Shown piece by piece: positions 9,457-59,312 of a stretch of DNA of 64,000 nt. The notes beneath the pieces are model-generated. The model made no database searches. It saw only the letters and a list, made by a program, of their open reading frames with translations, and had not been told where the DNA came from. Position 1 is the stretch's first letter; the number at the start of each line of letters is the position of its first letter. Where the stretch lies: assembly GCA_963817535.1 (NCBI GenBank), contig CAWFOW010000011.1:243473-307472 (forward strand), given 5' to 3'. The DNA comes from an uncultured Alphaproteobacteria bacterium. Lineage in GTDB: Bacteria > Pseudomonadota > Alphaproteobacteria > MPNO01 > DASWLB01. The translations under genes and the position numbers were made by a program.

Positions 9457-11424
9457 TCAATGGGTGACCATGTTGTTGACGAGGTACAGGCTGATCGCCG
9501 GGAACGCCACGAGCAGGCCGAGCTTTACGAAATCCGCAAGGACGTAGGGGAACACCCCCTTGTAGATCGTCCACATCGGCACGTCCGGCGTCACGCTTTT
9601 CAGCACGAACACGTTGATCCCGAGCGGCGGATGGATCAGGCCGGTCTCGACCACGGCGAGCTGGATGATGCCCCACCACACCAGGTCGTAGCCCATGTTC
9701 AGGATCAGGGGCGTCACGATCGGCACGGTGATGACCATCACCGCGAACGATTCCATCAGCGAGCCGAGGATCAGGTAGAAGACCAGCAGCATCGCCATGA
9801 CTTCCCAGTTGGCCCAGCCGAGGTGGGACACCCAGTCGGTCGCGATCTGTGTCAGGGCGCTGACCGCAACGAAGAACGAGAAGGTCTGCGCGCCGAAGAT
9901 CAGCCCGTAGATCATGGCGGTCACCGCCGTCACTTCGGCCATCACGCGCCAGAACGCGCCGCCCTTGAGCTTGCCGCGATGTAGCGCCGCAAGGAACGCG
10001 CCGACCGCGCCCACCGCCGCCGACTCCGTGTCCGTGAAGATGCCCATGTAGAGCCCGCCCATCACGGCGAGGAACAGGGCACCCACCGCGCGGCACTGCC
10101 ACAGCTGCTTGCCGATCTCGGTCGCGCCTGCGTGGAGCGACTTGGGGCACGATTTCGGCGCGAGGTGGACGTACAGCCAAACGGTCGCGCAGTACAGCGA
10201 GACGCTGAGCAGGGCCGGGCCGAACGCACCCATGAACAGCCGGCCGACCGAGGCCTCGGTCAGCAGCGCGAAGACGATCAGCGGGCCGGACGGCGGCACC
10301 AGCGCGCCAAGCGTGCCGCCGGCCGCGCAGACGCCCGTCGACAGGGCGGGAGAGTAGCCGCGGCTGCGCATCTCGGGCACCGCCACCTTGCCGATCAGCG
10401 AGGCGGTGGCGATCGACGACGAGGTCAGCGCGCCGAACCCGGCGCAGCCGACGACTGTGGCGTAGGCGAGGCCGCCGCGCAGCCGGCCGAGGACGGTGTG
10501 CGCCAGATCGTACAGGTCGGTCGCCATGCCCGCCGTGGCGGCGAAGCTGCCCATCATCAGGAAGAGCGGCAGCGTGCCGACCTGGCTGTTGGTGAGGAAG
10601 CCTTCGGCTTCGGTGGCGAATGCGCTGAGCGCCGGGTCGAACCCGATGATCAGCGCGGCACCGACCAGGCCCACCATCCCCATGACGGCAGCGAGCGGCA
10701 CCAGCCCGAGCATGAACAGCCACAGGCAAAGGAAGGCGTACAGCACCTCGAGCCCGATATGCCGCTGGGCCCAGCTCGAGACGTCATGGATGTTCAGCGC
10801 GACATAGACGGCGAGCGCGACCACTGCAATGCCGGTGGCAAACGTAATCTTCGTGAACGTCGGATGCGTCTCCTCGCCCGGCTGCGGCGGGGGATGGTCA
10901 ATGACCTTGCGGAAATTGTTGAGCGCAACAACGACCTGCACGAGGCAGCCGATCGTGAGCAGCACCGCGACACCGTAGATGAACGGCGCCTGCGGCAGGC
11001 CGAGCATCACCGTACCGCGCCCCTGCTCGGCCAACTGGCCGGCATAGACATAGATCTGCCAGGTCAGGAGCGAAAAGAAGGTCAGCAGAATGAGCGAACC
11101 GACCGAGTCGAGCCACATCCCGAGCCGGGGCGTCATGAACCGGGTCAGCAGGTCGATGCGCAGATTGACCTTGTTGGCGAGGCCCGCCGGCACGGTGGCC
11201 GAGATCGCCACCGCGAACAGCATGGCGGTGACTTCGTTCAGGGCCGGGAAGGGCGAGTTGAACAGCCAGCGCATCAGCACGTCGAGCACCGTCGCGCCTG
11301 CGGCGGTCAGCATCCCCGCCACGCCGAGCGAGGCGACAGGTCGGGTCCACAGGACGCAGATATGCTCCAGGCGCTCGAGCAACGGCTGCGCCGAAGCGCC
11401 TTCCGCCTGCGCGACGTGAGCCAT
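9457..11424 (-). CDS. TRAP transporter fused permease (DctQ-DctM fusion), paralog A
   Basis: DctQ-like N-terminal segment (LFNSPFPALNEV...) followed by a DctM-like body (PLFLMMGSF...GCAGFGALTSSSIATAS...GTLGALVPPS). The ATG at 11424 has a GGGAGG RBS 7 nt upstream, so the track start 11532 is probably over-extended. Confidence 0.85.
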   Translation of the reverse strand: MAHVAQAEGASAQPLLERLEHICVLWTRPVASLGVAGMLTAAGATVLDVLMRWLFNSPFPALNEVTAMLFAVAISATVPAGLANKVNLRIDLLTRFMTPRLGMWLDSVGSLILLTFFSLLTWQIYVYAGQLAEQGRGTVMLGLPQAPFIYGVAVLLTIGCLVQVVVALNNFRKVIDHPPPQPGEETHPTFTKITFATGIAVVALAVYVALNIHDVSSWAQRHIGLEVLYAFLCLWLFMLGLVPLAAVMGMVGLVGAALIIGFDPALSAFATEAEGFLTNSQVGTLPLFLMMGSFAATAGMATDLYDLAHTVLGRLRGGLAYATVVGCAGFGALTSSSIATASLIGKVAVPEMRSRGYSPALSTGVCAAGGTLGALVPPSGPLIVFALLTEASVGRLFMGAFGPALLSVSLYCATVWLYVHLAPKSCPKSLHAGATEIGKQLWQCRAVGALFLAVMGGLYMGIFTDTESAAVGAVGAFLAALHRGKLKGGAFWRVMAEVTAVTAMIYGLIFGAQTFSFFVAVSALTQIATDWVSHLGWANWEVMAMLLVFYLILGSLMESFAVMVITVPIVTPLILNMGYDLVWWGIIQLAVVETGLIHPPLGINVFVLKSVTPDVPMWTIYKGVFPYVLADFVKLGLLVAFPAISLYLVNNMVTH

Positions 11425-24573: not shown

Positions 24574-27330
24574 TTAACGCGTGACGCGCTGCCACCAGCC
24601 GCGGCGGGTCGGCTTGGATTCGGCCGGCTCCTCGGCGTGCGCGGGGGCGTGCGCCGGTTCCGGCACCCGCTCCGGCTCTGCCTCGGCATGGGCCGGCTCG
24701 CGCGCGGGTTCCGGCTCGGGCACCTGTTCCGGCACGCCGGTCGACCAGGCGATTTCATCGGCGGTCGGGCGCTCGGGCGCGGGCGGTGCCGGTTCGGCCG
24801 ACTCGCTCTCGTCGCTGTCGTCCGCGACGTCCTGGCCGAAACCGGGCTGATCGGCCGAGGTGCCCCAGGGCGCCTCGTGGCCGGGCCCGTGCAGGGAGAA
24901 CGCCGGCGCCTCGTCGAGCTCGTCTTGCGCGGCGGTCGGTGCGTCCTCCGCCCCAGACTCGGCCGTCGGGGCGGACTGTGCCTCGTCACCGTGGCGGCTG
25001 CGACGGCGTCCCCCGCGGCGACCCCGGCGGCGGCGGCGCGGCTCGCCTTCGCCCTCGCCGGCCGGCTCGGCATGGGTTTCGGCAGCAGGCTGGGCTTCGC
25101 CCCCGTCGGCGGGGGCTTCGGCGGTTGCCTCGACCGGCTCGGCCGTTTCGGCGGACTCACCGGGTGTCGCCTCGGCCTGTGGCACGGCCTGATCGCCACC
25201 ACGCCGTCCGCGCCGGCGGCGGCGACGCCGTCCGCGGCCCTCGCCTTGCTCGGACGGCCGCGCCTCGGCCGGCGCCGCAGCGGCGCTCTCCTCGGATTCG
25301 GCCTCGGCCACAGCGGCGGCGGCATCCTCCTCGGCCAGCTCCTCCGGCTCGATATCCTCGACCGGCACCGGCTGGTCGCCGCCGACCGAGGCCGGCACCG
25401 GGCCTTCGCCCGGCGCGCGCGTCTTGACGCGCTCCAGCTTGAAGTCCGGCGGGATCAGCTCGTCGTCGCGCTCGATGTCGACGGTGAAGCCGTAGCGTCC
25501 TTCGATGCCGTTCAGCACCTGGCGCTTCTGGTTGAGGATGTAGAGCGCCACCTCGGTCGGCACGAACACCTTGATGCGTTCCGAGCGGTGGCGAATGCCC
25601 TCTTCCTCGATGGCGCGCAGTACGTGCACGGCGGTCGACTCGGTCGAGCGCACATGACCCGCGCCGCGGCAGTACGGGCAGATCTGGGTCGAGGCTTCCA
25701 GAAGGCTCGGGCGCAGCCTCTGGCGCGACAGCTCGAGAAGCCCGAACGGGCTGATGCGTCCGACCTGCAGCCGGGCGCGGTCGATCTTCATCGCCTCCTT
25801 GAGGCGGCGCTCGACCGCGCGCTGGTTGCGGCCTTCCTCCATATCGATGAAGTCGATGACGATCAGGCCGGCCAGGTCGCGAAGGCGAAGCTGGCGCGCC
25901 ACCTCGTCCGCGGCCTCCAGATTGGTCTTGGTCGCCGTCTCCTCGATGTTGCGCTCGCGCGTCGCGCGGCCGGAGTTGACGTCGATCGCGACCAGCGCCT
26001 CGGTCGGGTTGATGACGATGTAGCCGCCCGACTTGAGCTGCACGACGGGCGAGTGCATCTGGGCGAGCTGGCCCTCCACCTGGAAGCGGTGGAACAGCGG
26101 AATCTCGCCGCGATAAAGCTGGACCTTCTTCGCATGGGACGGCATGAGCAGCCGCATGAAGGTCTTGGCCGTCTGGTAGGCGTCCGCGCCCTCGACCAGG
26201 ACCTCGTCGATCTCCTTCACGTAAAGATCGCGGATCGCGCGCTTGATCAGGTTGCCTTCCTCGTAGACGAGGCAGGGGGCGGTCGATTTCAACGTCAGTT
26301 CGCGCACCGTGTCCCAGGCGCGCAGCAGGAAGTCGAGGTCGCGCTTGATCTCGGGCTTCGAGCGCTCGACGCCCGCGGTGCGCATGATGACGCCCATATG
26401 CTCGGGGATCTCGAGCTCGCTGAGCACCTTGCGCAGCTTGCGCCGGTCGGCCGGGTTGGAGATCTTGCGGCTGATGCCGCCGCCGCGCGCCGTGTTGGGC
26501 ATCAGCACCGCGTAGCGCCCGGCGAGCGAAAGGTACGTCGTCAGTGCCGCACCCTTGTTGCCGCGCTCCTCCTTGACGACCTGGACCAGCAGGATCTGGC
26601 GGCGCTTGATGACCTCCTGGATCTTGTAGTGGCGGTGCGGCCGCACGCGGCGGCGCTCCACCTCCTCGGTCTCGTCGCCGCCGACCGTCTCGACATGGCC
26701 GGAAGCCGGCGACTCCGATGCCTCGTCGCCCGCGCTTGCGGGCTCGGCGGACGCCGGCTGACTTTCGACCTCGCCGTCGCCTTCGCTCACCGGCGTGGCG
26801 ATGGTGTCGGCCGAGCCCTCGAACATGGCGGCTTGCGCCGGCGTGTCCTGCGGGTCGTCCGAGGGGTTGATCGCGCTATCGGTCTCGTCGGTCGGCGGCT
26901 CGCTCTCGATGTGTGACTCGAACTCGTGGCTGGAATCCGCGTCGTCGGCGAAAAACTCGGCGTCCTCGCCTTCTTCGGCCTGCCCGCGCGCCTCGGCGTC
27001 CTCGCCTTCTTCGTCGTCGGCCTCGGCCGCGGCCTTGGCTTGCAGCCGCGCCTCCTCGGCGAGCAGCGCTTCGCGGTCGGCGACCGGGATCTGGTAATAG
27101 TCCGGATGGATTTCCGAGAACGCCAGGAAACCGTGGCGGTTGCCGCCATAGTCGACGAAGGCGGCCTGCAGCGACGGCTCGACGCGCGTCACCTTGGCCA
27201 GATAGATGTTGCCCTTGAGCTGGGTCTTGGTCGAGGTCTCGAAATCGAACTCTTCGAGACGATTGCCGTTCAGCACCACCACCCGAGTCTCTTCCGGATG
27301 CGTGCCGTCGATCAGCATGCGATATGACAT
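24574..27330 (-). CDS. rne: ribonuclease E
   Basis: 918 aa. N-terminal S1 and catalytic domain (MSYRMLIDGTHPEETRVVVL...AFVDYGGNRHGFL...). C-terminal Arg/Glu/Ala-rich low-complexity scaffold region. Confidence 0.9.
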   Translation of the reverse strand: MSYRMLIDGTHPEETRVVVLNGNRLEEFDFETSTKTQLKGNIYLAKVTRVEPSLQAAFVDYGGNRHGFLAFSEIHPDYYQIPVADREALLAEEARLQAKAAAEADDEEGEDAEARGQAEEGEDAEFFADDADSSHEFESHIESEPPTDETDSAINPSDDPQDTPAQAAMFEGSADTIATPVSEGDGEVESQPASAEPASAGDEASESPASGHVETVGGDETEEVERRRVRPHRHYKIQEVIKRRQILLVQVVKEERGNKGAALTTYLSLAGRYAVLMPNTARGGGISRKISNPADRRKLRKVLSELEIPEHMGVIMRTAGVERSKPEIKRDLDFLLRAWDTVRELTLKSTAPCLVYEEGNLIKRAIRDLYVKEIDEVLVEGADAYQTAKTFMRLLMPSHAKKVQLYRGEIPLFHRFQVEGQLAQMHSPVVQLKSGGYIVINPTEALVAIDVNSGRATRERNIEETATKTNLEAADEVARQLRLRDLAGLIVIDFIDMEEGRNQRAVERRLKEAMKIDRARLQVGRISPFGLLELSRQRLRPSLLEASTQICPYCRGAGHVRSTESTAVHVLRAIEEEGIRHRSERIKVFVPTEVALYILNQKRQVLNGIEGRYGFTVDIERDDELIPPDFKLERVKTRAPGEGPVPASVGGDQPVPVEDIEPEELAEEDAAAAVAEAESEESAAAAPAEARPSEQGEGRGRRRRRRRGRRGGDQAVPQAEATPGESAETAEPVEATAEAPADGGEAQPAAETHAEPAGEGEGEPRRRRRGRRGGRRRSRHGDEAQSAPTAESGAEDAPTAAQDELDEAPAFSLHGPGHEAPWGTSADQPGFGQDVADDSDESESAEPAPPAPERPTADEIAWSTGVPEQVPEPEPAREPAHAEAEPERVPEPAHAPAHAEEPAESKPTRRGWWQRVTR

Positions 27331-27821
27331 GAAATCTTGCTCCGGCCCGAAACCGCGGACTCCGCGCGAACAAGCGGAGACGGTCGGGCTCTTGTAATCG
27401 AGGCCGGCGGCGCCATTGGTCGGTTCGATCCGGGCGCGCTCCTGGCGAATACCTCGCCGCGCGCCGTCGCGGACCCTTCAAGGCGGCCGTCACCCGGTCA
27501 TAGGGACCGGCCTCGTTGTCCTTACCATTACCCCGGAACGTTCGGGCGCCGCCTCCGGACCGCTGCACCGGGCGTACGTCGCTCCGGCCTGGTCCGACGC
27601 CGCACCTGCCCGCGGCCAATGCGCGGCGGGCGACGGTTCCGTGGCGTGTTCGCCCACTTAACATAATCCTCGCGCTCGGCCGCTACAATCGATAATGCGT
27701 TGACGACGATGTGGCCAAGCCTCTGGGATTCTGGGGTTTATGGCTGGATCGGGCCGATTCGCGTTGCGGCGACGCAGACGCTCCGGCTATATGTGGGGGA
27801 AGGAGAGAGGCGATCCACAGC
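27331..27821 (-). promoter_or_regulatory. long rne 5' leader / divergent rne-amiC control region
   Basis: About 490 bp non-coding between the rne ATG (27330) and the amiC ATG (27822). RNase E genes are known to have long structured autoregulatory leaders. Confidence 0.4.
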
Positions 27822-29039
27822 ATGTGGGAGGCTCGGCTGAGGGGGATAGCCGCCCTGTTCGCCGTTTCGCTGGCGTTCGCAGGTCTCGTCCTGCGGCCGG
27901 CTGCGGCCGGGGACGCACGGCCGGTGGTGACCGACGCCCGCATCGGCGCCCACGGCACCACCACGCGCTTCGTGATCGAGCTCAGCGCGCCCGCGCCCTA
28001 CCATGTCTTTCTGCTGGCCGAGCCGTACCGCGCGGTGATCGACCTTCCCGAGGTCGATTGGCGCCTGCCGGCGAATGCCGAGAGCGGGCGCGGCGTCATC
28101 ACCGCCCGGCGCTACGGGTTGTTCAAGCCGGGCACGTCGCGCGTGGTACTCGACCTTTCCGAACCCGTTGCGGTCGCCAAGTCGTTCGCCCTGCCGCCGA
28201 TCGGCGGTGCCGGAAACCGCATCGTCCTCGACCTCAAGCCGACCACGCGGTCCGCCTTTCTTGCGGCCGTGCGCGGCGCAGCCGTCCCGGCGCCGGCCGC
28301 CGCGATGCCCGCGGTTCCGCCGCTACCCAGGCGCCGCCCCGGCGACCGGCGGCTGGTCGCCATCGATCCCGGTCACGGCGGCATCGACCCGGGAACCATC
28401 GGGGTCGGGCGGGTGTTTGAAAAGAACGTGACCCTCGCCATGGCGCGGATTCTAAAAAAAGCGCTACAGGATACAGGACGTTACGACGCGATGCTGACAC
28501 GCGACACGGACGTGTTCATCGAGTTGCGCGATCGAATCAAGATCGCCCAGCAAGCCAATGCGGACGTGTTCCTTTCTCTGCATGCGGACTCGCTGTCGGA
28601 CCGGTCCGTGCGCGGCGCTTCCGTCTATACCCTGTCCGAGACCTCGTCGGACGCCGAGGCCGCGGCGCTGGCCGCGAAGGAGAACCGTGCCGATGCGCTG
28701 GCGGGTGTCGATCTTTCGGGTCACAGCCAGCCGGTCGCGCAGATACTGATCGAACTGACCCAGCGCGTCACGATGAACGCGTCGTCCGTGCTCGCCCGCA
28801 CCCTGGTCGGCGAGCTGCAGGGCATCGAGCCCTTGTTGCCGAAGACGCACCGCTATGCCGGATTCGCCGTGCTGAAATCGCCCGAAATCCCCTCGGCGCT
28901 GATCGAGATGGGGTATCTGTCGAACCGGATCGACGCGCGCGCGCTGGAGACTCCGCGCTTCCGCAGCAAGTTCGCGGCCGCTGTCGTCCGTGCGCTCGAC
29001 CGCTTTTTCGCCCGGCAGGAGGCGTTGAACCGGCCATAG
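27822..29039 (+). CDS. amiC: N-acetylmuramoyl-L-alanine amidase (AmiC-like, AMIN domain + amidase_3)
   Basis: Signal peptide MWEARLRGIAALFAVSLAFAGLVLRPAAAG, LVAIDPGHGG...SLHADS amidase_3 motifs. The ATG at 27822 has an aggagagagg RBS. Confidence 0.85.
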   Translation: MWEARLRGIAALFAVSLAFAGLVLRPAAAGDARPVVTDARIGAHGTTTRFVIELSAPAPYHVFLLAEPYRAVIDLPEVDWRLPANAESGRGVITARRYGLFKPGTSRVVLDLSEPVAVAKSFALPPIGGAGNRIVLDLKPTTRSAFLAAVRGAAVPAPAAAMPAVPPLPRRRPGDRRLVAIDPGHGGIDPGTIGVGRVFEKNVTLAMARILKKALQDTGRYDAMLTRDTDVFIELRDRIKIAQQANADVFLSLHADSLSDRSVRGASVYTLSETSSDAEAAALAAKENRADALAGVDLSGHSQPVAQILIELTQRVTMNASSVLARTLVGELQGIEPLLPKTHRYAGFAVLKSPEIPSALIEMGYLSNRIDARALETPRFRSKFAAAVVRALDRFFARQEALNRP

Positions 29040-53392: not shown

Positions 53393-53667
53393 CTGACGTC
53401 TTGACCCCTTCGCTCGTACGGGTGACGCGGGACCCGGCCCGCAATCGGCCGGAATATTGCACCTGCGGGCCGCCCCGTCCACCGCCACGCGGCCGCACGA
53501 TTCGGCTCAAAGGGCAAATTTTCCACTTCATATGGTATGATAAGGGGGAATTTTCGCAAAATATGGTTGCACCTCCGAAATCTAGCGTTCTACTATAGCC
53601 GAACCGCTAGATATGGGCCGATTTGCAGCGTTGTTTTGGCCCCAACCGGCGGTGTGGGGGGAAGACA

Positions 53668-56600
53668 GTGCGCATTGCGCGACGGTTTACCATCGCCGGC
53701 CGGTCTCCCTATGACGGGACCGAGTTCCGTGTCGCTGCGCGGGACGACGAGGTCGATGCACCGGGCATCGAGGTTCCAGTCGCCTGGTCGGCCGAGTCCT
53801 GCGAGGCGCTGGCCGAGCTGTGCTTCACGGTGCCTTGCGTGCCGCGCGCCACGGTCGCCGTCCCGGAGGCGGACGTTCCCGGGTGGCTATGGCGCCGCCG
53901 GCCCGAGCGGAGCGCCGCCGAACCGCTGGACCCCGAGCATGACGCGCGCCAGGTGTTCGACCGGATCGCCGGCGCCTGGACCTACCAGGGCTGGAAGGGC
54001 GGCGCCTTCGACAGCGAGGAAGATGCCGCCGCCTTCCACGATGAGATTTGCCATCTCCTCTGCCAGCGCATGATTTCGCCCGAACCGGCCGCGTGGCGCG
54101 CCACCGGCCTGCGGTGGGCCTACGGCGTGGGGGGCGCGCGCGGAGGCTGGATCGTGGATGACCGGTCGGGCGAGCTGCGCCGGGCCGAGGCGCGCGACCT
54201 GCCTCCGCACGGCGCGGCCATCGTCCGCACGCCGCGCGGCGGTGCGGCCGTGGACGGCGTCCTGGCGCCATGGCGCGAGGAATCGCTGGTGCTGGCCGAA
54301 GGGCTGGACACCGCGATCGACGTGTCCGCCCTCGCCGGCGAGGGAAAGTTGATTGCGGCCCTCGGTATCGGCGACGCCGTCGCTCGAGCGATCGGTGAGG
54401 GCGCGTCGCGCGCCCGCACGATCGTGCTCGATGCCGCCCATCCCGACGCGCCTCAGTTCGCCGCACGGCGCATGCGGGCGGCCGGGCGCGAGGCCATGAC
54501 CGCGACCGGGGCGCATATCGCGCGGCGCCATCTCGCCGCGCTCGCCGCCGCCTGCCATGGGCGCGGCCGCAAGGCATTCGATCCGGCGCGCAACCCGTCG
54601 CTGCGTCTTGCCCTGATCGCGGCGCGCGAGGCGGGCGTCCCCGAGGACTGGGTGGAGCGCGCCCTGCGCCTCGCCCACCAGGGGCGTGCCCTGCCCGAGC
54701 TGCCGGCCCTTGACGAGACAGTCGCCGAGGAGGAGTCGGGCATCGCGGCCGAGCGCCAGGTGCTACGCATCTCGGGCGAGGTCGAGGGGCCCGCGGTCGA
54801 TCATCTGGCGCTGGCCGCATGGATGGGGCCGGGCAGCGGAGCGCTGTTCGCCGATACCGCCGACGCATGGAACCCGTGCCCCGCCGACGGGCGCATCGCG
54901 GCCATGGCGGCGGATGGCGGCTACGTGTTCCTCGACGGCACGGCGTGCCCGCGTGCCGCCGTCAACCTGCTCGCCTTCCGCCATCCCGATGGCTCGTTCG
55001 ACGCGCCCGCACTGGCCGACGCCGTCCGGCTCCTGGTTGTCGCTCTCGATTCGAGTCTTGCGATCACCGCGCAGCCGACGCCGGGTCTTGCCGACGGGGT
55101 GTGGCGCACGCGGCCGATCGGAATCTCCATCGCCAACCTTGCGCCGCTTCTCCTGGCGCATGCCGAAGGCTACAACTCGGCCGGCGGGCGCGCGCTCGCG
55201 GCGGCGGTCGCCGCCCTGGTCGGCGGGGCCGCGAACTGTGCCTCGGCCGAGATGGCGGGCGAGCTGGGTGCTTTCCCCCGCTTCGCCGACAATCGCGAGG
55301 CGGTGCTGCGTGTCATCGCCAACCACGCCCGCGCGGCTGCCGGTGCGCGCGATGGATATGAAGCGCTGCCCTGTCCGCCGGTTGCGCTGGACGCCGCCGA
55401 CTGCCCGGACCCGGCCCTGGCCGAGGCGGCGCGTCTCGCCTGGCAGCGCGCGGCGACGCTCGCCGCGGCGCATGGCGTGCGCCACGCCCAGACCACGCTG
55501 GTCGCCCCGCTCGGCGCGTCCGAGCGCATCCTCGGCTGTGCCGCCTGCGGCATCGACCCGCTGCCCGCGACCATCACCTACGAGCGGCTGCCGGGCGCCG
55601 GGTTCCGCAAGGGCGTGAGCCGCGAGGCGCTGGCCGCGCTCGCGTCGCTCGGCTATGACGAGACGCAGGTCGCGGGCTTCGTCGCGCACGCCGTCGGACG
55701 GAACACGCTGGTCGGCGCGCCCGCCATCGACCACCGCGCGCTGCGCGAGCGCGGCTTCACCGAGGCGGCACTGCAGGCGCTCGAAGGCGCCCTCGCCAAT
55801 GCGCTCGATATCCGCTTCGTGTTCAACCGCTGGACTCTGGGCGCGGAGTTCTGCACCCGTGTGCTCGGCTTCTCGCTTGCCGAGCTCGACGATTACGGCT
55901 TCGACATGCTGGCCGGGCTCGGCTTCTCGGAGTCCGAGATCGCCGCGGCGAACGCATGGTGCTGCGGCGCGTCGTGCTTCGAAGGCGCGCCCGGGCTCGA
56001 CGCGGAGCATCTCGGCGTGTTCGATGGGCCGCGCCGCCAGGGCGGCGGCAAGCGCGCGCTCACGACCATGGCCCAGCTCCGCATGATGGCTGCGGTCCAG
56101 CCCTATGTTTCCGGTGGCGTCGGGCGGGCCCTCGCGCTGCCGGCGGAGGCGACCATCGAGGATTGCGCCGCCGCCGTCGGCGCCGCACGCCAGCTCGGCC
56201 TCAAAGGACTGATGGTGGCGCGCGAGGGCGCGGCGATCGCAGTGCCGGCGGATGTGCCGCAGTTGATCGTCCGCCGCCTGCACGAACCGTCGACGCCGCC
56301 AGACCGGCGGTTTGGCCCGCCCGGTCGCAGCGCCGCCGCGCCGCCGTCCCTGCGGGAACGCCTGACCGTGATCGAGGGTGGCGAGCATCCGAGCAGCGCG
56401 CCGCAGCCCACCGCCCAGGCCGGTGGGACGGCGATGGCGATCGCACGCGGCACGGCTGGATGGAACGCGCTTGCGCCGAACGTTCTCGGACGGTCGCAGG
56501 CGCTCGCCATCGCGCTCACCGCGCGCGACATGGCGGCGGCCGCGAACGAGGAACATCACGAGACATGCAGGACGGACCGTGCCGACGCGCGCTGTCAGGA

Positions 56601-56682
56601 CTGTGGGAGCTTCGCCCTGCTTCGCACCGAAGCGGGCGCGAAGTGCGGCATCTGTGGCGCCGTGCACAGATGCAGCGAGTGA
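53668..56682 (+). CDS. NrdJ-like (class II, adenosylcobalamin-type ribonucleotide reductase homolog), highly divergent and possibly catalytically degenerate
   Basis: N-terminal RFTIAGRSPYDGTEFR and DARQVFDRIAGAWTYQGWKGGAFDSEEDAAAFHDEI match NrdJ N-terminal blocks. The central ...WNPCPADGRIA...ACPRAAVNLLAFRHPDGSFDAPALADAVRLLVVALDSSLAI aligns to the NrdJ active-site region. The C-terminal CQDCGSFALLRTEAGAKCGICGAVHRC is an NrdJ-type Cys cluster. GTG start at 53668 with a G-rich RBS. Confidence 0.65.
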   Translation: MRIARRFTIAGRSPYDGTEFRVAARDDEVDAPGIEVPVAWSAESCEALAELCFTVPCVPRATVAVPEADVPGWLWRRRPERSAAEPLDPEHDARQVFDRIAGAWTYQGWKGGAFDSEEDAAAFHDEICHLLCQRMISPEPAAWRATGLRWAYGVGGARGGWIVDDRSGELRRAEARDLPPHGAAIVRTPRGGAAVDGVLAPWREESLVLAEGLDTAIDVSALAGEGKLIAALGIGDAVARAIGEGASRARTIVLDAAHPDAPQFAARRMRAAGREAMTATGAHIARRHLAALAAACHGRGRKAFDPARNPSLRLALIAAREAGVPEDWVERALRLAHQGRALPELPALDETVAEEESGIAAERQVLRISGEVEGPAVDHLALAAWMGPGSGALFADTADAWNPCPADGRIAAMAADGGYVFLDGTACPRAAVNLLAFRHPDGSFDAPALADAVRLLVVALDSSLAITAQPTPGLADGVWRTRPIGISIANLAPLLLAHAEGYNSAGGRALAAAVAALVGGAANCASAEMAGELGAFPRFADNREAVLRVIANHARAAAGARDGYEALPCPPVALDAADCPDPALAEAARLAWQRAATLAAAHGVRHAQTTLVAPLGASERILGCAACGIDPLPATITYERLPGAGFRKGVSREALAALASLGYDETQVAGFVAHAVGRNTLVGAPAIDHRALRERGFTEAALQALEGALANALDIRFVFNRWTLGAEFCTRVLGFSLAELDDYGFDMLAGLGFSESEIAAANAWCCGASCFEGAPGLDAEHLGVFDGPRRQGGGKRALTTMAQLRMMAAVQPYVSGGVGRALALPAEATIEDCAAAVGAARQLGLKGLMVAREGAAIAVPADVPQLIVRRLHEPSTPPDRRFGPPGRSAAAPPSLRERLTVIEGGEHPSSAPQPTAQAGGTAMAIARGTAGWNALAPNVLGRSQALAIALTARDMAAAANEEHHETCRTDRADARCQDCGSFALLRTEAGAKCGICGAVHRCSE

Positions 56683-56806
56683 GTGTCACGGCAGTCTGAC
56701 GTTGCGTCTCCCTGAACTTCGGGGGGTGCGAATGGGCCGCACCCCCCGTTTTTATTGCGGGAGCTCGCCTACGATGTCGTGACAATTCGGCGCCGGTGCG
56801 CCGTCG

Positions 56807-57974
56807 CTACGCCACCTTCTCGGCGATGGGGCTCAGCTCCTTGAGGCGCGGCAGGACTTCCTTGGCGAACAGCGTCAGGCTCTTCTGCACCTCGGGCGTG
56901 TCCATCGAACCGGCCTGCATCATCAGCATCATGTGACCGATGCCGCCGACATGGTCGTGGAACTTCTTGATCTGCTTGTAGACCGTGTCGGGGCTGCCGC
57001 AGAACATGTTGCCCTTCTCGATATGCGTGTCGAGCGCGGTGCCTGACGCGCTCGAACTCGAGACCGACGGGCGACAGGCCCTGGCTCCGCATCTGCACCA
57101 GCCGCTCGGCCGAGACGTAGCCCGGCACGCGCGCGAACTGCGGGTACACCTTGTTCATGTTGATGTACCACAGCACCTTCTCGGCGAGCCGGCGGCCCTC
57201 CTCGTCGGTCTCGCCCGTGGCCGCCATGGCCAGATAGCCCCAGCGGTCGGTCGGCGCTTCGCTTCCGTGCGCGGCCTTCCAGTACTGGCGATAGCCGTCG
57301 AACACCGCCTTCGCGCCGTTGAACCCGGTGAGGAACGAGGCCGCCACGTATTTCTTTTCGGCCAGGACCTTGCACGAGGCAGGCGAAGACACCGTCACCC
57401 AGATCGGCGGGTGCGGCTGCTGGTAGGGGCGCGGCCAGATGTTGATCTGGCGGTGGTGAAAGTAGCGGCCTTCCCAGTTGAACGGGCCGTCATGGGTGGT
57501 CCACGCCTTCACGATCAGGTCGTGGGCCTCCCACATCCGGTCGGCCATGCGCATCGGGTTGGAGTTCTGCGCCGACAGCTCGAACGGCACGCCGCGAATG
57601 AAGCCGCACTCGAGCCGTCCGCGCGAGATGACGTCGACCATCGCCATCTCCTCGGCGATGCGCGTCGGCTGGCGGCGGTTAGCGAGCGGATTGCCGAGCA
57701 CCAGGATGCGGGCGTCCTTGGTGACGCGCGCCAGGATGGCGGCGATCAGCGGCACGGCAGGCACCGTGCAGGTCGCCGTCTGATGGTGCTCGTTCAGCAT
57801 GATGTGCAGCCCGAGCTCGTCGGCGATCTGCCACTCGTCGATGCGGTGGTTGTAGATGTCGGAACCCTTGAGCGGGTCGTAGTTGGAGTTCGGGAACACC
57901 ACCCGGACGTTGTCGAGCGTCTCTGCCGGCGGCAGATGCGGGTAGGCGGTCTCGCTGAAATGATAAACTCTCAC
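56807..57974 (-). pseudogene. LLM-class (luciferase-like) flavin-dependent oxidoreductase with apparent frameshift
   Basis: N-terminal 340 aa (MRVYHFSETAYPHL...SQGLSPVGLEFERV) is in one frame. The conserved C-terminus ...GTALDTHIEKGNMFCGSPDTVYKQIKKFHDHVGGIGHMMLMMQAG... is in the +1 frame (track ORF 56807..57007). Junction ~57030..57050. Confidence 0.55.
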
Positions 57975-58002
57975 GGCGTGTTCCTTTTCCGGTTGCCGCG
58001 CG

Positions 58003-58779
58003 TCAGCGGGCGAATTCGGTGACCAGTTTCACGAACGCGTCGGGCTGCTCCACGTTGGGCGCGTGGCCGGCGCCCTCGACCTTGGCGAACTTCGCGCCCG
58101 GGATCTCGTTCGCGAGCTTCTGTCCGTAATCGGGCTTCACCAGCCCGTCGGAAGCGCCCCACACCACAAGCGTCGGCACGTCGATACGGTGCAGCCGGCC
58201 CTTGAGCTTCGGGTTGTGCAGATACGGCTCCCAGCCGTACAGCGCCATCGCCTCGCGGTTGCGGCCGGCGGCCAGTGCCTCTGCGTCCGTCAGCTTCGTC
58301 GGATCGGGCGCCTTCGACGGATCATGGAACATGAGCTTGCCCAGTGCCTCGACCGGCGTCGCAAAAATGTCGGCGATGTCGCGCTCGGTGCGACCGCCGA
58401 ACTTCACGCCCACCGAGTCGACGAGGATCAGCCGCTTCAGGCGCGAGGTGTTCTTGACCGCGATCTCCATGGAGAGCCAGCCGCCGAGCGAGAACCCCAT
58501 CAGGGTCACGTCCTTGAGGTCGAGCTGGTCCATCAGGTCGAGATAGAGATAGGCGAGATCGTCGACGGAATCGTATGCGTCGGGGAGTGGCGACGTGCTG
58601 AAGCCCGGATGCGCCGGTACCAGCAGGTCGAAGCTTTCGGCCAGCTTCTTCGCGAACGGGGCGTTCGGCTGCGGACCGCCGCCGCCGTGCAGCATGAGCA
58701 GCGTCGGCCCGGTGCCGCGCCGCGTCAGCTCGATCTCGACACCGTGGACCTTCAGCCGGTCGTCCACCACCTGGTCCAT
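58003..58779 (-). CDS. alpha/beta hydrolase
   Basis: GFSLGG nucleophile elbow, HGGGG region. The ATG at 58779 has a GGGAGGAA RBS; the track start 58941 is over-extended. Confidence 0.8.
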   Translation of the reverse strand: MDQVVDDRLKVHGVEIELTRRGTGPTLLMLHGGGGPQPNAPFAKKLAESFDLLVPAHPGFSTSPLPDAYDSVDDLAYLYLDLMDQLDLKDVTLMGFSLGGWLSMEIAVKNTSRLKRLILVDSVGVKFGGRTERDIADIFATPVEALGKLMFHDPSKAPDPTKLTDAEALAAGRNREAMALYGWEPYLHNPKLKGRLHRIDVPTLVVWGASDGLVKPDYGQKLANEIPGAKFAKVEGAGHAPNVEQPDAFVKLVTEFAR

Positions 58780-58934
58780 GCGACCGTTCCTCCCATGCTG
58801 TTCGGCCCGAAACCTAGCAGGGTTGAAGCGCGCCCTGCAATCGGCAGATGGAGAACCGCGCCACGCCGGATGGCGCTGGCGCCACGGTTTCGAATGTCTA
58901 CAATTCGCATCCGAATCCAGCGGGAGGTGCGGCG

Positions 58935-59312
58935 ATGGCAATGGTCCCCTTGGCAGCGAAGGGCAACTTCCTGCACGTCTACGATTTCCGGGTGAGGCCC
59001 GGCACGGGCGAGGAGTTCATCCGGCTGTTCGACGCGTTCGACTATTCCGACGCGAACCCGATGCACAAATCGCCGGCGCAGGTGAAGGACGGCGTGCTGT
59101 GCCGCGACACAGAGGACGCCGATCATTTCTATCTGATCGGCGAATGGTCCGACATCGTGGTCCATGCCGACATCCGCAAGCAACTCATGGCGCTGGCGCC
59201 CGATTTCGTCGGCCTGATCGAGGGCGGACGGTTCGTGCCGAAATACGCCGAGGTCGTGTCGTCCACGCCGCAATCGGTGCTGGACAATGCGGCGGCGGGC
59301 AAATCGGCCTGA
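58935..59312 (+). CDS. ABM-domain (antibiotic biosynthesis monooxygenase-like) protein
   Basis: MAMVPLAAKGNFLHVYDFRVRPGTGEEFIRLF...DHFYLIGEWSDIVVHADIRKQ. GGGAGG RBS 7 nt upstream of the ATG at 58935. Confidence 0.5.
   Translation: MAMVPLAAKGNFLHVYDFRVRPGTGEEFIRLFDAFDYSDANPMHKSPAQVKDGVLCRDTEDADHFYLIGEWSDIVVHADIRKQLMALAPDFVGLIEGGRFVPKYAEVVSSTPQSVLDNAAAGKSA

Follow-up and report, generated by a model that had tools for sequence, protein, structure and literature searches.

Gene organization and regulatory elements of the nrdJ-like locus

The window analyzed here, a stretch of 64,000 nucleotides from an uncultured Alphaproteobacteria bacterium, carries on its forward strand a gene for a homolog of the class II ribonucleotide reductase (RNR) NrdJ, whose features are collected in Table 1. 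The first-pass annotation had described an intact NrdJ-like open reading frame of about 1005 amino acids. The frame is real, running from a GTG at 53668 to a stop codon at 56680-56682 and encoding 1004 residues. The core of the Shine-Dalgarno-like run GGGGGGAAG is conserved at L001, L003 and L086, with L084 carrying a merely similar G-rich run, GGGGGCAAG; the terminator and the upstream operator are conserved as well. A strict sigma-70 consensus scan of positions 53400-56900 returned no promoter, and a hand-picked pair of -35 and -10 hexamers (TTGCAC and TACTAT, 18-bp spacer) falls below the criteria of that scan and is not claimed as one. Comparing the entire window with Rfam at gathering thresholds gave zero matches and hence neither a cobalamin riboswitch nor another known RNA near the gene.

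The NrdR operator consists of two 16-bp boxes with the conserved positions C4, A6, A8, T9, T11 and G13, separated by a linker of 15-16 bp and located in the promoter region (PMC13584703). Two such predicted pairs precede the gene, and a scan of the window yielded 3 matches against 0.02 expected. The third, at 27784, might have flagged another nrd gene but sits at an amidase gene. The upstream pair is conserved at L001, L003, L083, L086 and L088, and the promoter-proximal pair at 5/5 clade loci tested; the distant, degenerate L088, L089 and L085 loci have box pairs too. Of 76 canonical nrdJ loci, 55 carry homologous boxes upstream of the gene, and only 7 pairs were found elsewhere in 1.36 Mb. 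Judged by these predicted operator sequences, the gene qualifies as a putative member of the NrdR regulon.

The gene is flanked by NDUFA12 and MlaD on its upstream side and by ridA and FemAB downstream. Canonical nrdJ has NDUFA12/MlaD upstream in about 49 loci and ridA/FemAB-like genes downstream in 18. On this comparison, the gene is best described as the positional ortholog of the ancestral nrdJ and its direct, in-place descendant. The proposal of an altered or regulatory paralog was therefore right about the alteration, given the lost catalytic residues described below, and wrong about a side copy. The downstream ridA and FemAB-like genes were rejected as functional partners because the same genes also follow canonical nrdJ. 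The neighbors of the gene are simply the ancestral nrdJ neighbors. When E. coli NrdA and NrdB and four NrdJ proteins were used to probe the 64-kb window for a further RNR, they recovered the gene itself only.

Table 1. Coordinates of the nrdJ-like gene, its regulatory elements and its protein features within the window.
Feature	Position	Strand	Basis
Upstream NrdR box pair (predicted), CCACTTCATATGGTAT - 15 bp - TCGCAAAATATGGTTG	53523..53569	+	11/12 conserved positions
Promoter-proximal NrdR box pair (predicted), CTCCGAAATCTAGCGT - 15 bp - CCGCTAGATATGGGCC	53573..53619	+	12/12 conserved positions
Purine-rich Shine-Dalgarno-like run GGGGGGAAG, 5' of the GTG start	53656..53664	+	Read directly
CDS, NrdJ homolog predicted to be catalytically dead, 1004 aa	53668..56682	+	Domain hits, alignment, dN/dS, structure
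Ribonuc_red_2_N domain, residues 32-133	53761..54066	+	Pfam, E = 9e-18
A183 codon, first redox Cys position (HACFIQ to HGAAIV)	54214..54216	+	Alignment
Degenerated Gly-rich region, presumably specificity loops 1 and 2, about residues 211-259, with 10-aa and 3-aa deletions	54298..54444	+	
Finger loop and Cys2 region, residues 413-434, MAADGGY...TACPRAAVNL	54904..54969	+	Alignment
Degenerated loop, APTGTIGLVMDC to APLGASERILGC, residues 613-624	55504..55539	+	Alignment
Low-complexity linker replacing the IscU-like/TSCPD domain, about residues 861-964	56248..56559	+	pLDDT <50; dN/dS 0.32
C-terminal Zn ribbon, residues 965-1004	56560..56679	+	Alignment
Intrinsic terminator, 11-bp stem (10 G-C) followed by TTTTTATT	56720..56758	+	Directly after the gene

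Relationship to class II ribonucleotide reductases

Homology to class II RNR covers residues 1-860 and the C-terminal CxxC...CxxC ribbon. The protein matches the Pfam families PF08471 and PF02867 and the structure 7B9P (E = 2.6e-165). It scores 650 with PRK07562 against a 1737-bit cut-off, below the NrdJ equivalog threshold, and 138.6 with TIGR02504 against 399.95 bits. An AF2 model (pTM 0.77; pLDDT 80-97 across most of residues 1-860) was compared by Foldseek with the Rhodobacter sphaeroides NrdJ 7B9P (TM 0.73/0.81) and with the T. maritima NrdJ (TMt about 0.72), and according to this predicted structure the RNR alpha/beta barrel fold is retained. Of the three regions that the first-pass annotation had aligned with NrdJ, the active-site region and the C-terminal ribbon stand. 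The third, at the N terminus, corresponds to the Ribonuc_red_2_N domain rather than to an ATP cone, and its conservation profile shows it to be well conserved in the degenerate and canonical forms alike.

Compared with the long-form alphaproteobacterial NrdJ (PRK07562; 7B9P/7B9Q), the protein is about 35-43 % identical and colinear over residues 1-860. Both share the PF08471 N-terminal domain, the PF02867 barrel, the lineage-specific helical insert and the Zn-ligand tetrad of the structural ribbon, together with the genomic slot and an NrdR-type operator. Unlike the long form, it lacks the thiyl-radical Cys, the Asn, the Glu and the first redox Cys; the allosteric loops 1 and 2 along with the PTGT loop, SKTINMP and YRDGS; and the IscU-like/TSCPD domain with the redox Cys equivalent to C933.

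The C-terminal region combines losses with conservation. The IscU-like/TSCPD domain (PF12637), which we name after the description of long NrdJ C-termini in PMC9669993, gives no Pfam match and is deleted in the alignment. The six-Cys array of the NrdJ C-terminus is composed of four Zn ligands and a redox-active pair (PMC5704485). The four Zn-ligand residues (C976, C979, C993 and C996) are kept and invariant in the clade. As for the redox pair, the C933 equivalent has been lost in all clade members, being Gly here, and the C945 equivalent is kept in 4/9, including the window protein, where it is the terminal C1002. The sister group has a conserved tail ending in '...SSADAVVEQRQV'.

Loss of catalytic residues

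DNA precursors arise solely through RNR, and few known catalytic residues vary as little as those of this enzyme. The claim that the catalytic motifs of this protein are substituted proved correct and, if anything, understated, as alignment to NrdJ shows that the key residues are gone. The motif SNPCSEY corresponds to MAADGGY (residues 413-419), in which the Asn has become A414, the thiyl-radical Cys D416 and the Glu G418. The NPCPAD previously equated with NPCGE is a different segment (residues 402-407) and aligns with the non-catalytic HTCPED. No member of the clade has the thiyl-radical Cys of the finger-loop tip (NPCSE); the motif reads AADGG here.

Two further substitutions had been read correctly. 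ACPRAAVNL aligns with ACNLASMNL, keeping the second Cys of the active-site redox pair (C427) and replacing the Asn by P428, and AEGLDTAIDVS...SRARTIV takes the place of the Gly-rich GSGTG...GGG...RRAAKM. The redox pair is incomplete, with A183 at its first position; the second position, C427 here, is variable across the clade. The PTGT loop has been lost, and SKTINMP and YRDGSKLSQP, signature motifs of class II, have degenerated. Judged from these alignments, the gene product is predicted to be no longer capable of ribonucleotide reduction.

Selection and conservation among orthologs

Comparison with an 82 %-identical ortholog gave a dN/dS of 0.155 (bootstrap CI 0.13-0.19), and the other ortholog pairs gave 0.21-0.31, with all CIs below 0.37. 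The ratio is uniform over the domains and reaches 0.11 in the dead finger loop. The corresponding values are 0.11-0.29 for flanking genes and about 0.07-0.13 for canonical nrdJ at similar dS. A dN/dS like that of the neighbors and near that of canonical nrdJ argues for purifying selection, which supports the first-pass view that the open frame reflects selection rather than decay. The ratio is nonetheless 1.2-2x that of canonical nrdJ, and the composition has drifted to 47 % GARP; together, these two features point to past relaxation.

Nine or more orthologs, 54-83 % identical, have the same substitutions. Colinear intact orthologs number at least 8-9 down to 54 % identity, with P0023 at 40 %. 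A frameshifted ortholog, which would indicate pseudogenization, occurs in one long-read assembly and perhaps in another: L003 is split by a single 1-nt insertion, and P0031/P0032 are possibly a second split ortholog. Once the extra base of L003 is removed, a full open reading frame with the same dN/dS is recovered. With essential catalytic residues lost and purifying selection acting on the rest, the protein is, as far as sequence data can indicate, a pseudoenzyme. Since it is full-length and conserved, occupies the old nrdJ slot and carries predicted nrd repressor sites, it looks like an undescribed pseudoenzyme and not like a dying gene.

A family of degenerate NrdJ proteins

An exhaustive profile search revealed about 50 further clusters (at 50 % identity) of degenerate NrdJ proteins that share derived states: the Cys has become Asp, the next residue is Gly, and the Asn has become Pro. 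The resulting Asp-Gly in place of Cys-Ser at the loop tip is conserved in many lineages. The degenerate set may be monophyletic, according to a neighbor-joining tree of a kind prone to long-branch attraction. Querying with an alignment of 15 diverse degenerate proteins led back to the neighborhood of the first search, probably because Ala-rich words dominate the selection of candidates.

PRK06948, a curated family of "ribonucleotide reductase-like protein" whose match to the barrel is weak and local and whose length differs (604-position model), was rejected as the home family. The window protein scores 62 against its 906-bit cut-off, and 9 other degenerate representatives score 71-106 bits, none reaching that value. 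We found no description of a dead NrdJ in the literature searched, in RNRdb, in RNR phylogeny papers or among curated families, and to our knowledge no bacterial dead-RNR lineage of this kind has been described.

Proposed role and alternative explanations

Our findings probably are best explained by a catalytically dead, in-place descendant of nrdJ that selection has kept as a non-catalytic protein co-regulated by NrdR. Catalysis would have been lost in an ancestral long-form nrdJ at its original locus, and purifying selection has since preserved the dead form in uncultured Alphaproteobacteria that make up a diverse radiation. The gene would form a single-gene transcription unit whose promoter region holds two predicted NrdR operator pairs, which lead us to expect its derepression alongside the real RNR genes of the cell when dNTPs are needed. 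The protein may then act in the network of dNTP supply or replication by way of its C-terminal ribbon or peptide and the accessory modules that have stayed conserved, while another RNR elsewhere in the genome would carry out ribonucleotide reduction. We infer the binding function, NrdR control, expression and the second RNR from these data, and the most likely mode of action would be that of a binding protein, scaffold or regulator. More tentatively, long-form NrdJ may have a second, non-catalytic function, residing in the N-domain, the C-terminal ribbon or peptide and the lineage-specific insert, that has outlived catalysis; the dead proteins would then be a large, NrdR-regulated family of about 50 clusters that regulate or scaffold dNTP supply or replication.

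Non-catalytic RNR subunits have a precedent in yeast Rnr4, a small-subunit paralog that supports Rnr2 and is retained as a partner of the active subunit. It resembles the present case as a pseudoenzyme within the RNR system and differs in being a beta (radical-generating) subunit that arose by duplication, whereas here an alpha barrel is concerned, in an ancestral copy at its original locus. By analogy, the dead protein could heterodimerize with an active long-form NrdJ encoded elsewhere, stabilizing or regulating it. The predicted fold retains the class II dimer-interface helices, and co-regulation through NrdR boxes would match the expression of partners. This arrangement is nevertheless unlikely: the dead copy has taken the ancestral nrdJ slot, a second nrdJ is absent from the 64-kb window, the contigs with dead copies appear, from their lengths, to carry none of the canonical NrdJ found among the closest database relatives, and loops 1 and 2, from which the shared specificity site of the dimer interface is built, have been deleted or have degenerated. 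Such a partner would be a special case of the preferred explanation. We consider it rather improbable that the protein serves as a sensor or buffer of B12 or dNTPs, with a barrel that can still take up adenosylcobalamin or a nucleotide but performs no turnover. The strong constraint on the barrel core and altered finger loop, the conserved Asp-Gly at the loop tip and the placement in the predicted, nucleotide-sensing NrdR regulon are consistent with a ligand, but the PTGT loop, SKTINMP, YRDGSKLSQP and both effector loops are degenerate, and neither a cobalamin riboswitch nor any other Rfam element lies nearby.

Decay into a pseudogene, with a reading frame that chance alone has kept open, is strongly disfavored and very improbable. 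The GC content of 0.74, with long spurious open reading frames in other frames, the drift toward GARP and the one or two split orthologs could be read in that way; the dN/dS values, the intact orthologs, the conserved operator, Shine-Dalgarno-like run and terminator, and the L003 frame restored by one base speak against it. It is scarcely credible that the protein is an active RNR with unconventional residues or chemistry, possibly the only one of the organism. That reading draws on the ancestral locus, the nrd-type regulation and the lack of another RNR in the 64-kb window, and it is opposed by the loss of the essential class I/II-type residues (the thiyl Cys, the Asn and Glu, and one of the paired Cys), of the substrate and effector loops and of a C-terminal redox Cys. 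Moreover, the replacement residues differ between lineages, unlike those of an active site.

Biological implications

The preferred explanation, a dead NrdJ retained as a non-catalytic protein, has a viral parallel. MCMV M45 and HCMV UL45 are inactive homologs of the large subunit of cellular RNR (PMC5469499). As is proposed for the present protein, these betaherpesvirus proteins have lost catalysis and kept a non-enzymatic, protein-binding role. They differ in being class I and viral, with host RIP1/NF-kB and cell-death targets, and are unrelated to NrdR, B12 or bacteria, so that the likeness is one of evolutionary fate only.

What sets the present gene apart is that purifying selection, the ancestral nrdJ locus and a predicted, RNR-specific NrdR operator come together in a dead RNR. 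If confirmed, this would point to a hidden non-catalytic role for the accessory modules of long NrdJ proteins and would offer a natural experiment in the conversion of an enzyme to a pseudoenzyme with its regulation retained. Automated pipelines label the degenerate proteins "ribonucleoside-diphosphate reductase alpha chain," and for that reason metabolic reconstructions from MAGs would wrongly credit these organisms with a class II RNR and a dependence on B12.

Gene and family assignment

The nrdJ-like gene is preceded by a purine-rich run that is conserved in orthologs, and Pfam assigns to its product the class II N-terminal domain (PF08471) and the ribonucleotide reductase (RNR) barrel (PF02867). 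The nearest protein of known structure is the class II RNR from Rhodobacter sphaeroides (7B9P), aligned over residues 1-860 with an E-value of 2.6e-165. The scores against the NCBIfam equivalogs reach only 650 bits versus a cut-off of 1737 for PRK07562 and 139 versus 400 for TIGR02504. Antisense or off-frame ORFs overlapping the gene, of up to 634 aa, are typical high-GC artefacts and not genes. The gene belongs to an uncultured alphaproteobacterium. The PBP1A encoded in the window shares 85-86 % identity with other MAG proteins and 64 % with cultured Pelagibius, and Rhodospirillales/Kiloniellaceae labels occur nearby. Among reference genomes, MAG MFD02416.bin.3.171 is the sole carrier of the gene.

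Features of the degenerate nrdJ locus and related sites (window coordinates unless a locus is named)
Feature	Position	Strand	Remarks
RNase E	24574..27330	-	divergent from amiC-like ORF
amiC-like N-acetylmuramoyl-L-alanine amidase ORF	27711..29039	+	
Third NrdR-box-like pair	27784-27830		CGGCTATATGTGGGGG - 15 bp - CCACAGCATGTGGGAG; 11/12 positions; 5' end of amiC-like ORF
Putative NrdR box pair	53523-53569		5' spacer of degenerate nrdJ; 11/12 positions; 15-bp linker
Putative NrdR box pair	53573-53619		5' spacer of degenerate nrdJ; 12/12 positions; 15-bp linker
Degenerate nrdJ CDS	53668-56682	+	intact ORF; GTG start; 1004 aa
Overlapping ORF (example)	53825-54868	-	
Overlapping ORF (example)	54763-56667	-	
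Hairpin, 11 bp, G+C-rich, then T-run	56720-56758		terminator 3' of stop codon
Luciferase-like-monooxygenase-type ORF	56769..57974	-	after terminator; family judged by eye from translation
Alpha/beta-hydrolase ORF	58003..58941	-	family judged by eye from translation
thyX, locus L001	17599-18537		
thyX, locus L003	19934-20860		

Catalytic residues and structure

The protein was aligned residue by residue with 7B9P and six canonical, catalytically intact long NrdJs. The finger-loop motif 'SNPCSEY' reads 'MAADGGY', in which the Asn has become A414, the radical Cys D416 and the Glu G418. The first redox Cys is replaced by A183 ('HACFIQ' to 'HGAAIV'), and the second is retained where 'TACNLAS' reads 'TACPRAA', with Asn changed to P428. 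The Gly-rich stretch, which we take to hold specificity loops 1 and 2, has degenerated and lost 10 and 3 residues; about 23 more are deleted after 'SGQNSNNS', and 'APTGTIG', 'SKTINMP' and 'YRDGSKLSQP' are altered to 'APLGASE', 'GRALALP' and 'AREGAAIAVP'. The IscU-like/TSCPD domain is gone entirely, with a low-complexity linker in its place. The alignment thus bears out the first-pass annotation of an NrdJ-like ORF with substituted catalytic motifs; the 'NPCPAD' cited there as a substituted motif, however, aligns with 'HTCPED', a different conserved block.

In the C-terminal Cys array of NrdJ, four Cys bind Zn and C933/C945 form the electron shuttle (Loderer et al., PMC5704485). The Zn ligands are invariant across the clade of close orthologs, whereas the C933 equivalent is absent from all members and that of C945 from five of the nine. 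With the catalytic motifs and C933 equivalent lost and the Zn ligands kept, the requirements for chemistry and turnover all appear to be gone and the structural Zn ribbon to be retained. Of the 157 alignment columns whose conservation in canonical enzymes reaches 95 % or more, only 44 are still kept in the degenerate set, clustering in the N-domain and the lineage-specific insert. An AlphaFold2 model, confident for residues 1-860 (pTM 0.77), matches 7B9P with TM-scores of 0.73/0.81, suggesting, within the limits of prediction, that the RNR fold has been preserved.

Four other cysteines, C45, C52, C132 and C967 ('CEALAELCF', 'LLC', 'ETCR'), are invariant in the close clade, absent in canonical NrdJ and not conserved over the wider degenerate family. 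A separate observation concerns P0025 (1062 aa, 2.9-Mb contig), a catalytically intact canonical NrdJ without the ~90-residue helical insert of other long NrdJs, showing that in at least one lineage the catalytic form can do without the insert.

Genomic position and NrdR boxes

At every clade locus the 5' neighbours, on the opposite strand, are NDUFA12-MlaD-(methyltransferase)-DUF2155, preceded by aat-accC-accB-aroQ, and canonical nrdJ fills the same position in ~49 related alphaproteobacterial loci. Genes for RidA and a FemAB-like protein lie 3' of the degenerate gene in most loci, and 3' of canonical nrdJ in 18. This shared neighbourhood identifies a positional ortholog of ancestral nrdJ; the gene is an ancestral nrdJ degenerated in place, not a duplicated paralog. 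The ridA-FemAB segment is missing from the window genome and other ORFs replace it (56720-58941), which indicates local rearrangement. In two related MAGs, thyX (flavin-dependent thymidylate synthase), another dNTP-pathway gene, lies 5-7 kb downstream of the degenerate gene; tblastn gave no thyX match in the window.

A site for NrdR, the repressor of nrd genes, comprises two 16-bp boxes with conserved C4, A6, A8, T9, T11 and G13 and a 15-16 bp linker (PMC13584703). The 64 kb contain this pattern three times, where shuffled sequence predicts 0.02 occurrences. Both spacer pairs are kept by the close orthologs at L001, L003, L083 and L086 and one by the more distant L084; among remotely related degenerate loci, two pairs are present at L088 and at L085 and a single pair at L089. 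Canonical nrdJ has a pair within 500 bp upstream in 55 of 76 loci, with visibly homologous boxes, and only seven pairs occur elsewhere in 1.36 Mb. This conservation and homology point to retention of an nrd-type operator by the degenerate gene. The third pair, near amiC, may be a chance occurrence or a non-nrd NrdR target. No Rfam elements were found in the 64-kb window.

Selection and composition

Nine full-length orthologs, 54-83 % identical, all carry the same substitutions. By the Nei-Gojobori method, the window gene and its L001 ortholog (82-83 % aa identity, dS 0.67) give a dN/dS of 0.155 (bootstrap 0.13-0.19), with 0.11-0.15 per domain, 0.11 in the dead finger-loop region, 0.32 in the linker and 0.28 in the Zn ribbon; flanking genes of this genome pair give 0.15-0.29. 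Three further close pairs yield 0.21-0.22 and two more distant pairs, with dS saturating, 0.29-0.31, compared with 0.07-0.13 for canonical nrdJ pairs of similar dS, so constraint is only modestly relaxed. The gene is under purifying selection and is not a pseudogene, in agreement with the initial proposal that an altered NrdJ is kept by selection.

The protein contains 21 % Ala, 47 % GARP and 0.7 % Lys, compared with 32-37 % GARP and 2.7-5 % Lys in canonical NrdJ from similarly GC-rich genomes, and the gene has a GC content of 0.74 against 0.66-0.69 in its flanks. Such drift would fit a past episode of relaxed constraint.

Ortholog frameshifts, which the first-pass annotation had named as a sign of pseudogenisation, occur in one or possibly two cases. 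The L003 ortholog, from a long-read MAG, has one 1-nt insertion at ~11350-11360 (GCCGAACTCGG vs GCCGACGCGG) and is otherwise intact; removing the extra base restores a 997-aa ORF with unchanged dN/dS. A second copy is split into P0031 and P0032, both on a single contig of 107,818 bp. Each case is either an error in the consensus or an event of very recent date.

A wider family of degenerate NrdJ

In an exhaustive search of 1.84 billion representatives with the clade profile, the close clade formed a single 50 % cluster at 1761 bits, after which scores fell to 906 bits. Radical Cys and Glu are both missing in ~50 of the best 150 representatives once intein artefacts are removed. A neighbour-joining tree, in which long-branch attraction is possible, puts 43 of these ~50, with this clade among them, into a single group made up only of degenerate sequences. 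Shared derived states are Cys to Asp (16/50), Gly as the next residue (33/50) and Asn to Pro (23/50).

A sister group (P0023, P0042-P0044, P0054, P0058, P0060, P0062, P0064 and P0072; loci L084/L085 and L088) lacks the Zn ribbon and carries in its place a highly conserved C-terminal peptide, '...SSADAVVEQRQV', reminiscent of a docking tail; its genomic slot and NrdR boxes are those of the window gene. The distant members P0042 and P0056 share the ancestral neighbourhood. None of nine degenerate representatives scored above any NCBIfam cut-off, these proteins carry the automated source name 'ribonucleoside-diphosphate reductase alpha chain', and our literature search found no paper describing a dead NrdJ.

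Interpretation

Catalysis has been lost at an ancestral nrdJ locus with NrdR-type operators, and the product is a pseudoenzyme that descends from class II RNR. In evolutionary fate, and in that respect only, the inactive herpesvirus R1 homologs (PMC5469499) offer the nearest parallel. An Rnr4-like heterodimer partner is an unlikely alternative description of its role, and a ligand sensor or reservoir is slightly less probable. Given the purifying selection, a decaying pseudogene is very improbable, and an unconventional active RNR, set beside the lost catalytic motifs, is the least credible of all.

We favour a pseudoenzyme that would be expressed together with the real RNR genes and would have a binding or regulatory role without enzymatic activity. 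No second RNR lies within the 64-kb window, and dNTPs would be supplied by another RNR elsewhere in the genome.
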